Program-made: the position numbers
Shown here: positions 18,001 to 22,142 of the stretch, piece by piece
Layout: each line of letters begins with the position of its first letter
How positions within the stretch are numbered: position 1 is the first letter of the stretch
Source of the DNA: a virus
Direction: 5' to 3' (one strand)
Virus genome (UHGV): UHGV-0075672
DNA length: 22,142 bases

Positions 18001-21000
18001 GCTCGTTACCATCGGCAGAACGGGTTCAGGATTGGGTTTGTGAAGTTGTCCTCCCAGCCCTGATGGAGACAGGAACTTACAGCCTTAAACAGGAGAAAAG
18101 TACACCATCAAACGGCCTTCCTGAATACCGCAAAGCTAAAGCGCTGAAAATGGAAATGGAGGTTATCTCAAGCGTTCTGGATCGTTTACCGCACCTGGGC
18201 GACAAGGCGAAACAGGCTGCTTACGCCTCAGTGATTAACCGTTCTGCTGGTTTTAATGTTATCCCCCTTCCTGTTCTTGATGAACATCACTACAGTGCAA
18301 CAGAGGTTGGTAAACAGTTTGGCGTCACTGCAAACAAGATCGGTCGCATTGCCAATACCTACATGCTCAAAACAGAACAATACGGGAAATGGTTCATCGA
18401 CAAATCCCCGTATTCGGATAAGCAGGTAGAAAGCTTTCGATACAATAATCGGGGAGTACGGAAGATTGAAGAAATCCTGGAGGCGGAGAACAAAGCAGAG
18501 TTCGGAACCTGATATCCTCCACTCTCCGACGCCGCCAGAATGACGGCGCGGTGGTTAAGCATGAGGCGAAATTTCTGCCGGGCGGTATTTTGTTGAGAGA
18601 TGAGATACGTCAACTTCTCTTTCCGCTTTTTCGAGGCTCCATGCCGTCTGGAGACGAATCCATGAAGACGGAGTTCCACCCAGGACAGCAGCGAGACGAA
18701 CAGCCATTTCAGGAGATATTGTCGCATTACCTGAAACCAGTCGCTGAACAGTGGAAGGCGCGACATCAAGCGCTCTTGCCAGTTCCCTGATTCCAATATT
18801 CTGATCTTCCAGAATATCAGCAATAATTTCTCCGGGATGAGGGGGATTAAACATCGTCATTTAGTGGTAATCAAACATTTATGGCCTGAATCCCGTTTTT
18901 TTCAATAACGGAAAGAAGTCGCAGGGCGGGACCACCAGGGCGTTTCACTCCGCGTTCCCAGTCAGATATCAGGTTTTTACTGACATTCATATATCTGGCA
19001 AAGACGGGTTGTGACAGATGTTCACGCTCACGGAGTGCCCGGATTCTTTCAGGAGACATTGAAGGTGCTGGTTGCAGGCAGAGTTCATCGAATTCTCGCA
19101 TAGTCTGTTTCGTTACTGCGCCGATATCATGAAGCGATTCCATCATTTCATGTACGGATGCAAGCGCATCACTGCGGTAATTTTTACTCATTGGGTACCT
19201 CCGTAAACTGACCCTGTAGAATCAGTTGTGCCAGTTGTTCATCTGTTAGATTGAGTACGTGAGGTGCAGCCTTCCGAAATGTGCTTTCCTCAGTAGCGGT
19301 TATATTTTCACGTTCATTTTTTGCGTATGCATATACGAAAAAGGCCCTTGTGCCGACGCGATAGAAAATGATTGTGCGATAACCGCCAGATTTGCCGCCA
19401 CCGACTCGTGGCAGACGTTGCTTGATAACGCCGTTACCCAGGTTTGCTGAGATAAGCCCGTTATCAGCCTGTTTAACAATTTCGCGCAGTGACTGGTCGG
19501 ATATTTTGTTTTTGCGTGCAAATCGCTCAAACCAGGCGTTTTTAAAAATGCGCATTTTTTGTTCCGTTATTAATGTATAACACATAGTATTACATTGCGT
19601 AGGGATCTGCAATGCCATCAGTTTGACAACGTCGCGTATCCGGGATTATATTCTCCGCACGCCAGCAAAATCTGGCGTCGGGATTGAGACCCCGGATATT
19701 CAACCGCGACAGACACACGCCGCGAGCGTGTTTTTTATTGTCGTATGCACACGCACATCTGAATTATGGTGGGGCGTATGGGGCAGCCGAAAGGCTGGCC
19801 GGTTGGTTGATCCGGTAGTCTCAACCCTGTACGTCTCGCCACCCGATGATTGAGACCTGACGGTGGTGAATGAAAAACTCATCAACCGGAGGTGTCACTA
19901 TGACAACTCAAATCTCTGTTGAAACTCTTGCTGCGATTACTCACAACCAAACCCCTGTAATTACCACTGAGTTGTTGGCGCATCTTTATGGTGCGGACGT
20001 TAAGAATATTCAAAACAACTTTGCAAGGAATGTAGGACGCTTTCAGATTGGAAAGCACTTTTTTAAGATCGAAGGTGAAGAGTTACGTGAATTGAAGCAC
20101 AGACCATCTTTAAGTGGGTCTGTGAAAATCGCCCGTAACGTTCGTTCCCTCATCCTCTGGACAGAACGCGGCGCTGCCCGTCATGCAAAAATGCTCGAAA
20201 CCGATCGGGCGTGGGAGGTGTTCGAAAAACTGGAAGACTGCTATTTCAGTCAAAAAATCCCAGAACAACTTCAGCTTCCAGAATCAACGCTATCTATCAA
20301 CTACCCTCTATCGTGGTTTTCAGAGCATCACCCCTACTCCATGATGAGCTATGTTGATCGAAAAACTCTTAACCTGGACGTTTCCGTGCTCTTCGATATG
20401 CCAAGCCCAACTATGCGCATCCTCAACGAGCTACACAGCAAGGGCTATAACGTTGACGCCGCTGTTGCTGAATTTAACGCCTTCAAACATCTGACGGAAG
20501 AAATGCGCCGTACTCTACAGGATATTTCAAGACTGTCAGATCGAAATTCCCGAAAAGGCTTCTCGTTAAGCCTCTGACTTCCCCACCCCGACATCCCGTC
20601 GGGGTTTTCATATCTGGAGACAAAAATTTGAAACAGATCGCTTTCTACAGGCGTTCTGGAAGGCCCGGTGTCTTCCGTGGGTTAAAAGAACGCGTCACCT
20701 GGATGATTCAGTCTCGTGGTCGTCCTGTTACTGGCAGTGAAATAGCAGAGAAATTTGGTGTTTCACTTTGCGAGTTCAACAAGGTAGCTCGCAGCCTGAC
20801 AAAAGGCAGTAAGGTTGTGAAAATCAAGGCTTCAGAGTCATTCACCACAGACACCGGAATCGTTGATCGCTTTTTCTCCCTCGAATCAAATCCTCGTCGT
20901 GACACACCTCGTTCACGCAATGCCGTTCCTCCATTCAGTCGCAGAAGCCGTGAACACGCAGCAAAAAACTGCCGCGAGGAATACGAGCAAAAGGCCAAAC

Positions 21001-22142
21001 GCCGTCGCCGACTGATTAAAGCAGGACTTTACATTGATGAGTTTGAAAAGGCGCTATGACTAACAAATACACTCTCATTTACGCAGATCCACCTTGGACA
21101 TTCCGCGACAAAGCAACCGATGGTCAACGCGGTGCAAGTTTTAAATATCCGGTCATGAGCCTTCTCGATATCTGCCGCCTCCCGGTATGGGAACTGGCAG
21201 CAGATAACTGCCTGTTGGCTATGTGGTGGGTGCCTACACAACCACTTGAAGCATTGAAGGTTGTAGAAGCATGGGGCTTTCGCCTGGTGACGATGAAAGG
21301 ATTAACCTGGAACAAATGCGGGAAAAGACAGACCGACAAGCTGGTCATGGGTATGGGTAGCACCACTCGCGCTAACAGCGAAGACTGCCTTTTTGCAGTG
21401 AAAGGAAATCTGCCTGAACGCATTAACGCCGGAATAATTCAGTCATTTACTGCACCACGCCTTGATCACTCCCGCAAGCCGGATATGGCGCGAGAAAAAC
21501 TTGTGCAACTTCTTGGCGATGTTCCCCGGATAGAACTGTTCGCCCGCCACACCTCGCATGGATTTGATGTATGGGGTAACCAATGCGGAACACCATCCAT
21601 TGAGATGGTTCCGGGTATTGTTAAATTTCTGGAGAAAACCAATGAGCGAAAAAACGACGTTGACAAAGGCATCACCAGTTGAATTAAGGCAGTGTCTGGA
21701 AATCGCAAATCAACTTGCCAGAAGTGGAATACGCTTTGTTCCAATCCCGATCACAGCAGATGCAGAACTTCATCTGTTTGGTGAAATTCTTTCCCGAAAG
21801 CTGGATGAACTGGAAAAGCTGGTAGAAGAAGCTGACACCTCACCAATCGCATAACACCCCCACCGACATTAAAATATCAGGAGAAAAAAATGAACGCCGT
21901 ACTCACAGAATTGAACAAATTAGGAAAAGCAACAGCCGACAGCATTTCTAAAGGTCTCAATATTGATTTGAATGACGTCATTGATACGCTGTGGAAGTTG
22001 AAAAACCAGGGGATCGTAAAGGTAAAAAACGGCATCTGGCAGGCAGTAGAGGGAGTTGGAAGCAAAACAGATATTGATTCAGTTCAACCAGTTCAGCCAG
22101 TTCAGCCAGTTCAGCCAGTTCAGCCAGTTCAGCCAGTTCAGC

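Follow-up and report, generated by a model that had tools for sequence, protein, structure and literature searches.

A PNB-2/MT-A70 methyltransferase module of Shiga-toxin-type prophages in virus genome UHGV-0075672: organization, distribution and candidate substrates

Three Overlapping Genes in the Early-Left Region of a Lambdoid Prophage

Virus genome UHGV-0075672 was analysed as a single stretch of 22,142 nucleotides (nt), referred to below as the window, which corresponds to the immunity and early-left regions of a PA8/933W-type lambdoid prophage. An open reading frame (ORF) listing of the window places three tightly packed ORFs on the plus strand of the interval 20628–21854. The first (20628–21059; 143 amino acids, aa; TTG start; pI 10.8; 34 lysines plus arginines) encodes a homologue of PNB-2, which is gp6 of the Shiga toxin 2a (Stx2a) phage PA8; the second (21056–21682; 208 aa; Pfam MT-A70) encodes the catalytic subunit, which corresponds to PA8 gp5 (M.EcoPA8orf6770P) and is of the M.EcoGV type; and the third (21642–21854; 70 aa; Pfam DUF1382) encodes a homologue of lambda Orf63. 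It is essentially certain that these ORFs are the already known PNB-2/MT-A70 module of Shiga-toxin-type prophages, whose methyltransferase, also listed as M.ECPA8_3172P, was described together with PNB-2 from PA8 by Gong, Chakraborty & Koudelka (Nucleic Acids Research, NAR, 2023; PMC10810198). The finding itself is already known, and its remaining value lies in the comparative observations reported here.

Similarity to the PA8 system extends over all three genes, which together share 97.6% nucleotide identity with that phage. At the protein level, PNB-2 is identical to its PA8 counterpart at 137/143 positions, the methyltransferase at 207/208 over its full length including the C-terminal tail, and the 70-aa protein at 69/70 to the product of the next PA8 coding sequence (CDS) downstream (AKI86169.1). 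The methyltransferase also matches the enzyme of O104:H4 phage P13374 at 206/208 positions. The three-gene stretch matched 187 phage records, nearly all of them Stx-converting and all at least 95% identical, and 98 of these cover at least 80% of the stretch. Gene order is that of PA8, the 4-nt and 41-nt overlaps fall at the same relative positions (compared as annotated CDSs), the same hairpin lies upstream, and DUF1382, DUF1627, xis and int again follow downstream. The window differs from PA8 in six PNB-2 substitutions and one in the methyltransferase, in a more diverged ORF6N neighbour (197/225 identical to PA8 gp7, or PNB-1), and in its left end, where Q is followed by hok, as in PhiR12_3 (an stx-negative phage) and in the remnant prophage of SCU-104, with no stx locus.

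The junctions were read directly from the sequence. The stop codon of PNB-2 (TGA, 21057–21059) overlaps the methyltransferase start (ATG, 21056–21058) in the 4-nt string ATGA, and the 70-aa ORF begins 41 nt ahead of the methyltransferase stop, with GGAG 8 nt upstream of its start. The TTG start of PNB-2 likewise has GGAG 8 nt upstream and is backed by homologues that align from residue 1–2, including a conserved FYRRxG...GLKERVxW block. The initial annotation had described an MT-A70-type enzyme with a DPPW motif, tightly coupled to an upstream basic protein and overlapped at its 3′ end by a 70-aa ORF; on these points, coordinates and overlaps included, it is accurate in every particular. Among 37 species-representative MT-A70 loci, an upstream ORF overlaps or abuts the MT-A70 start in the great majority, and the upstream genes are heterogeneous. 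In the early operons of prophages, a stop/start overlap with whichever gene precedes it is thus the norm for MT-A70, and coupling alone defines no functional unit. Three minus-strand antisense ORFs of 92–99 aa (20708–20998, 21124–21423 and 21466–21744) are unannotated in the matching records inspected and were taken as shadow ORFs.

The MT-A70 Methyltransferase

Residues 5–176 of the 208-aa protein match the Pfam MT-A70 profile (PF05063) from end to end (positions 1–172 of 172; E = 1.3e-22; 81 bits against a cut-off of 23.9). The catalytic DPPW motif occupies residues 11–14, near the N-terminus of the domain, and two further segments, HSRKPD and RIELFAR, align with SQKPE and LEIFAR of MTA1 and are invariant or nearly so in a family alignment of 20 relatives. 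The rest of the protein is a variable C-terminal tail of 27–30 aa; domain and tail account for all 208 residues, with no target-recognition domain of the enzyme's own among them. Structural relatives were ranked by PDB sequence search (an AlphaFold2 model of the methyltransferase, built on a 20-sequence alignment, had a mean predicted local distance difference test score, pLDDT, of 42). The closest solved proteins are ciliate MTA1-type chains (E ~1e-12); METTL3, at 2.7e-5, is a more distant match.

This is the only MT-A70 gene in the window, where tblastn with two divergent MT-A70 queries found no second, catalytically eroded paralogue. Pfam searches detected no nuclease domain in the neighbouring ORF6N, PNB-2, DUF1382 and DUF1627 proteins, so that the enzyme has no endonuclease partner of the kind that defines a type II restriction-modification (R-M) system. 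The sole endonuclease belongs to a PstI-type R-M pair ~12 kb from the MT-A70 gene, and the methylase of that pair (6738–8207; NPPY motif) makes the MT-A70 enzyme the second adenine-type methyltransferase of the prophage; both the missing partner and the second methylase had been recognized in the initial annotation. In some strains (loci L056 and H13/H14) the methyltransferase gene is broken by insertion sequences, independently in each case. In strains G1/2, G6/7 and G8 the interruption is by IS150, after about codon 67, and in PA2 it is by IS629/IS1203.

The PNB-2 Partner

The PNB-2 gene lies directly upstream of the methyltransferase gene and is co-oriented with it. Its product has a winged-helix domain and a basic linker, together with a C-terminal helix that is conserved (KAxRRRRLIKAGLYIDEFE), and the predicted structure is that of a winged helix plus a basic helix. 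PNB-2 is the reported specificity or partner subunit of the methyltransferase (PMC10810198). We found no sigma-70-like promoter in the 22 nt between a terminator-like hairpin and the PNB-2 start; a promoter for gp6–gp5, reported by the PA8 authors as a personal communication (PMC10810198), was not located here.

The PNB-2 family is small, with 18 clusters in a set of 5.8 billion proteins. Among 68 family representatives in 1.84 billion proteins there was no fusion of PNB-2 to a methylase of the "Rosetta-stone" kind. Where MT-A70 proteins are longer, the extra sequence is a variable C-terminal extension or, in rare cases, PerC fused at the N-terminus, and never PNB-2.

Published Experiments on Near-Identical Proteins

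Disruption of PA8 gp5 by IS629 lowered both spontaneous induction and amoeba killing, and the defect was complemented by the wild-type gene and not by a DPPW-to-APPA mutant (PMC10810198). In work with PA8 proteins only, the methyltransferase co-purified and cross-linked 1:1 with His-PNB-2. On its own it showed just background, weak and non-specific activity, including on dam− DNA; the complex of PNB-2 and methyltransferase used S-adenosylmethionine (SAM) at a level >13.5-fold higher with total RNA than with DNA. This holoenzyme preferred 16S over 23S rRNA and 30S subunits most of all, and RNA from a strain already expressing the enzyme was a poor substrate (all PMC10810198).

A preprint (10.1101/2023.09.20.558713) reports that induction falls stepwise in single and double deletions, and that the nanopore signal differs at 16S positions 832, 1098/1100, 1132 and 1190. 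The role it suggests for the enzyme is protection of ribosomes against Shiga toxin, and it calls the methyltransferase unique to Stx phages.

Distribution of the PNB-2/MT-A70 Pair

In IMG/VR, all 25 Stx-type PNB-2 loci have the methylase. The same scan revealed a second PNB-2 clade, ~53% identical to the PNB-2 of the window, in temperate phages of Klebsiella pneumoniae, where PNB-2 precedes an MT-A70 gene with the same 4-nt overlap. The Klebsiella-phage MT-A70 protein is ~45% identical to that of the window and has DPAW instead of DPPW. A near-full MT-A70 gene lies within 3 kb of PNB-2 at 41/55 Klebsiella-clade loci and is directly adjacent in most; in Klebsiella phage ST13-OXA48phi12.5, for example (locus L145, 3502–5728), exo is followed by a PNB-2-like "regulator", MT-A70 (DPAW) and a C5 cytosine methylase, with 4-nt overlaps. 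That order and overlap are kept across such divergence gives good comparative support for a real partnership. These pairs also overturned a generalization drawn from 10 metagenome and 37 genome loci, namely that PNB-2 never stands beside a methylase outside Stx phages.

The pair also occurs in phages that lack stx. Window positions 1–4730 (Q then hok) match phage PhiR12_3 of strain ECOR13 (locus L054), which carries an identical module and whose annotation shows no stx from Q to the lysis genes. The prophage remnant of strain SCU-104, which came from a healthy student, is 100% identical to the window over 19600–22142. At window positions 1–1026 (L054 20537–21562) a hok/gef-type gene lies downstream of the Q antiterminator, with no stx locus; in PhiR12_3 and the SCU-104 remnant the Q-hok arrangement is followed by type I/IIG-like methylase cargo.

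Other small proteins are found ahead of MT-A70 genes. In E. coli 08-3914 (locus L058, 2800–3004) an unannotated, chimeric 67-aa ORF precedes a full-length MT-A70 gene and shares an ATGA overlap with the start of that gene. The ORF encodes a truncated phrog_1229/8038 protein that ends in the final 10 residues of PNB-2, LYIDEFENAL. Homology of this locus to the window begins at 21026, which places a recombination junction inside the PNB-2 C-terminus. In several Enterobacterales prophages (L031, L033, L035, L039, L042 and L053) the gene just upstream of MT-A70 encodes an activator of the PerC family, in some cases with a MarR-like winged helix at its N-terminus, and rare PerC–MT-A70 fusion proteins exist (P0027 and P0031). 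A recurring theme may be that the methylase gene is preceded by one for a small protein with a regulatory or nucleic-acid-binding role.

Candidate Substrates and Function

The best-supported claim is that the physiological substrate is 16S rRNA; we lean towards it without regarding it as secure. In this proposal the 208-aa protein is a bare catalytic core that has DPPW and the SAM-binding motifs and lacks a recognition domain, as its sequence shows. It would be translated just behind the basic, winged-helix PNB-2 and bind it 1:1, as others have shown for near-identical proteins. PNB-2 would provide nucleic-acid recognition and steer methyl transfer from SAM to 16S rRNA in the 30S subunit, the step reported by one laboratory, and altered translation would presumably raise spontaneous prophage induction, which is the reported phenotype. 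The 70-aa pro-lytic gene of Orf63 type is independent, and the upstream C4-RNA-controlled ORF6N antirepressor with its terminator is a different module.

The PA8 authors draw an analogy with METTL3-METTL14 (PMC10810198), which belongs to the same Pfam family, has DPPW and acts on RNA with a partner that binds the substrate. It differs in pairing two MT-A70 paralogues in a eukaryotic heterodimer that has zinc-finger and RGG parts for RNA binding, and in having no PNB-2 equivalent.

Several points weigh against rRNA as the physiological substrate. The assignment comes from one laboratory and from an indirect SAM-consumption assay together with nanopore shifts, and the authors state that no modified nucleotide was chemically identified (PMC10810198). 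The homologue in the O104:H4 Stx2 phage, M.EcoGV, which is reportedly highly similar to the PA8 enzyme, is recorded as a GATC enzyme, at least in secondary accounts and REBASE-derived tables (PMC10810198, citing Fang et al., 2012; PMC6602927). Overproduced without PNB-2, it is said to methylate GATC in vivo (PMC10810198, again citing Fang et al., 2012). The nearest solved relatives are ciliate MTA1-type chains, not METTL3, and MTA1-MTA9 is a DNA N6-methyladenine (6mA) enzyme that needs separate DNA-binding subunits (PMC7544214).

The likeness to this ciliate complex, MTA1c (MTA1-MTA9 plus p1/p2; PDB 7f4r, 7f4l and 7yi8), extends over the whole MT-A70 domain, with DPPW, S-x-KP and ELFAR-type motifs aligned, and includes the plan of an MT-A70 core without a recognition domain that relies on separate, small nucleic-acid-binding subunits of helix-turn-helix (HTH) type (PMC7544214). 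The substrate of MTA1c is ApT in double-stranded DNA, with no RNA activity reported (PMC7544214). Unlike the enzyme of the window, MTA1c needs a catalytically dead paralogue, MTA9, and its partner proteins are homeobox-like, not winged-helix.

Genome comparisons add further points against the rRNA assignment. In Klebsiella phages, where the order is PNB-2, MT-A70, C5, the gene for a C5 DNA cytosine methylase comes directly after MT-A70. In the 3 kb downstream of Klebsiella-clade PNB-2, MT-A70 (41 loci) and a PF05869 Dam gene (6 loci; Pfam E = 5.4e-55) never co-occur and appear as mutually exclusive alternatives; the PF05869 copy at locus L086 sits in the exact overlapping place of MT-A70, with the same 4-nt overlap (the Klebsiella-phage loci compared include L086 to L139). 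Members of the PF05869 family are DNA GATC methylases. Those of the T1/VT2-Sa Dam type resemble the MT-A70 enzyme in being small orphan N6-adenine methyltransferases of lambdoid prophages, and differ in belonging to an unrelated sequence family with an NPPY motif; there is no PF05869 gene in the window.

The two partners also differ greatly in abundance, with >1,247 clusters in the MT-A70 clade (mostly ~195 aa, from Enterobacterales) versus the 18 of PNB-2. Hundreds of MT-A70 relatives with 60–83% identity work without PNB-2, and an adjacent PNB-2 was found at 0/37 of the species-representative MT-A70 loci. By Pfam, the upstream genes at those loci encode DUF1317, NinB, PerC with or without a winged helix, and a PD-(D/E)XK protein; further ones look HNH-, DnaC- or ParB-like by eye only. 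In complete E. coli genomes the MT-A70 allele is present in 258 (208 near full length) and PNB-2 in 137, and at least 34% of the near-full-length copies of this allele are without PNB-2. At 10 metagenome loci, with PNB-2 relatives of 58% and 42% identity, no methylase lies within ~5 kb as far as the contig reaches, and single-protein scans with the most remote PNB-2 relatives gave 0, 1 and 4 loci, with no methylase match in any. The PNB-2–methylase link is frequent, not obligate. Finally, the occurrence of the module in stx-negative phages, and in Klebsiella phages without stx, argues against the rationale that it shields ribosomes from Shiga toxin. Taken together, the comparative data lean somewhat towards DNA-methylase ancestry.

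Much of this evidence (the M.EcoGV record, the MTA1-type relatives, the PNB-2-less MT-A70 genes, the C5 neighbour and the alternation with PF05869 Dam) would fit an MT-A70 protein that is primarily an orphan DNA N6-adenine methyltransferase, either Dam-like at GATC or relaxed. It would be expressed from pL in lytic growth for anti-restriction or epigenetic marks, with PNB-2 as a DNA-binding adaptor or regulator and the rRNA activity as a side reaction in vitro, and the position of the gene in the pL operon is as expected of an early anti-restriction function. On the other side, the purified enzyme, with or without PNB-2, shows near-background SAM use with dam− and dam−/dcm− DNA (PMC10810198), GATC protection is redundant in a Dam+ E. 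coli host, and the known phenotype is one of lysogens (spontaneous induction), not of plating efficiency. The initial annotation had guessed at such a DNA role and looked to an additional methylated motif in the lysogen as its mark. Published single-molecule real-time (SMRT) methylomes of carrier strains in effect report no extra methylated DNA motif (PMC6602927), and they are uninformative for GATC because host Dam masks that site. As stated, the anti-restriction or epigenetic function does not agree with published work on proteins 99.5% (methyltransferase) and 95.8% (PNB-2) identical to those of the window, which found background activity on DNA and a preference for rRNA (PMC10810198). We regard a primary role in DNA methylation as a minority view and rather unlikely.

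A broader proposal, which we put forward tentatively and think doubtful, is that PNB-2 acts as a portable adaptor of general use to those orphan adenine methyltransferases in temperate phages that lack a recognition domain, the true target being DNA, or DNA together with rRNA. PNB-2 may then serve two divergent MT-A70 lineages, those of Escherichia and Klebsiella phages, and possibly PF05869 Dam as well, and by analogy it may play in prokaryotes the part that the DNA-binding subunits p1/p2 play in ciliate MTA1c. A Stx-specific rationale of ribosome protection would on these terms be wrong, since the pair exists in stx-negative and Klebsiella phages.

Dual specificity, with the bare MT-A70 core methylating DNA (at GATC or loosely) and PNB-2 retargeting it to 16S rRNA, so that phages with and without PNB-2 would put the same core to different uses, seems to us quite improbable. 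It would reconcile the result for M.EcoGV without PNB-2, as far as secondary accounts give it, with that for the holoenzyme, and the PA8 authors raise it themselves (PMC10810198). It would also suit the PNB-2-less copies of the allele in E. coli, and METTL3-14 and M.EcoGII, which are class beta/MT-A70 enzymes, act on both DNA and RNA (PMC7544214, PMC5778455). Set against this are the weak, non-specific DNA activity of the methyltransferase alone in vitro (PMC10810198) and the lack of a direct demonstration of both activities at native expression. Methylation of 16S rRNA by the PNB-2/MT-A70 holoenzyme stays our preferred reading.

The 70-aa ORF Is a Separate exo-xis Gene

The 70-aa ORF matches Pfam DUF1382 (E = 1.4e-28) and PDB 8DSB, the nuclear magnetic resonance (NMR) structure of lambda Orf63 (E = 3.6e-11). 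In lambda, orf63 itself carries the DUF1382 annotation and has no methylase near it in the exo-xis region, and at locus L051 a 90%-identical MT-A70/PNB-2 pair is followed directly by DUF1627, without DUF1382. These two cases set the 70-aa ORF apart from the enzyme. For Orf63 itself, a pro-lytic phenotype and a dimeric fold have been reported (PMC5575149, PMC10869804). The ORF is a separate exo-xis gene and a mosaic neighbour, not a methylase subunit, and the "three-gene unit" of the initial annotation is better described as a two-gene enzyme beside an Orf63 gene. That the three ORFs form one complex, in which the DUF1382 protein would be a third subunit or would regulate the methyltransferase, is very improbable: the 41-nt overlap, the joint retention of all three genes at 25/25 Stx-type IMG/VR loci and in many Stx-converting phage records, and the order MT-A70 then DUF1382 in two lineages without PNB-2 (L053 and L058) would fit it, but lambda and L051 separate the genes, tblastn found DUF1382 at 0/37 of the species-representative MT-A70 loci, Orf63 has a phenotype and fold of its own, and the published holoenzyme is active without the 70-aa protein (PMC10810198).

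Prophage Context

Alignment to the annotated SCU-104 record gives the gene order from the left end of the window as Q and the nin/replication genes (minus strand), cro, cI, the PstI-type R-M pair, antirepressors, gam, recT, exo, an ea-type region, a RelE/HigA pair, ORF6N, the three ORFs and DUF1627; beyond the window, the matching genome record continues with xis, int and a tRNA-Arg next to dsdC. The module sits in the accessory segment of the exo-xis region (early-left, on the pL side), with the recombination genes on one side and xis/int on the other. This is the position of the exo-xis region of lambda (orf63, DUF1382; orf60a, DUF1317), which has neither a methyltransferase nor PNB-2 and is reported to affect lysogenisation and induction (PMC3824215, PMC5575149).

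Directly upstream, a plus-strand cassette begins with a promoter-like site at 19623–19652 (TTGACA-18-TATATT; 11/12 positions matched), followed at 19646–19846 by a1b1/isrK/C4 antisense-RNA elements that match Rfam above or at the gathering scores (isrK, 73.6 bits; C4, 70.6 bits; c4-a1b1, 46.3 bits). Next comes the ORF6N antirepressor, the PNB-1/gp7 homologue (19870–20577; ORF6N E = 6.8e-19; match to anti-repressor phrog_1760). The cassette is closed by the terminator-like hairpin at 20585–20605 on the plus strand (stem ACCCCGAC-ATCCC-GTCGGGGT, then TTTTCATATCT), which ends 22 nt before the PNB-2 start; a matching stem-loop and T-run make up the Rho-independent terminator that has been predicted after gp7 in PA8 (PMC10810198). 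In its arrangement the cassette looks like an antirepressor of the P1 immI type under antisense-RNA control, a module separate from PNB-2/MT-A70.

The plus-strand PstI/EcoGIII-type R-M pair consists of the methylase already mentioned (M, 6738–8207; Eco57I-type methyltransferase domain, NPPY at residue 136) and an endonuclease (R, 8204–9157) with a BsuBI_PstI_RE domain and its N domain (Pfam E = 2.7e-61 and 1.2e-54). In a comparison over window positions 6697–8846, the window has the complete methylase/endonuclease pair, of which SCU-104 (L001) and PhiR12_3 (L054) retain only a 3′ fragment of the endonuclease gene. CTGCAG, the PstI/EcoGIII site, occurs once in 22 kb versus ~5.4 expected, and GATC 69 times versus ~86 expected; the depletion of CTGCAG fits site avoidance, since the phage carries a PstI-type R-M system.

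On the minus strand at 18555–19618, a RelE-family toxin (144 aa as the listed ORF; annotated at 123 aa) and two HTH proteins (HigA-type antitoxin) form a stretch inserted in opposite orientation between a BRO-N gene and the antirepressor cassette. At the other end, seven copies of a 9-nt tandem repeat, CAGTTCAGC, encoding Q-P-V repeats, occupy 22080–22142 inside the DUF1627 gene and run off the end of the window. Annotated lengths of this gene differ between strains (405, 396, 387 and 354 nt), which suggests a variable-number repeat.

Implications for Shiga-Toxin-Type Prophages

The module is experimentally tied to the induction of Shiga-toxin phages and to how virulent STEC (Shiga toxin-producing E. 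coli) strains are, and its enzyme is the first claimed prophage-encoded rRNA methyltransferase. In annotation, what is entered as an "adenine DNA methylase" beside a "hypothetical protein" should be read as a two-subunit enzyme. The comparative observations (the Klebsiella pairing, the stx-negative carriers, the alleles without PNB-2 and the C5 and PF05869 neighbours) bear on whether its substrate is rRNA, DNA or both, and they argue against the enzyme existing to shield ribosomes from Shiga toxin.

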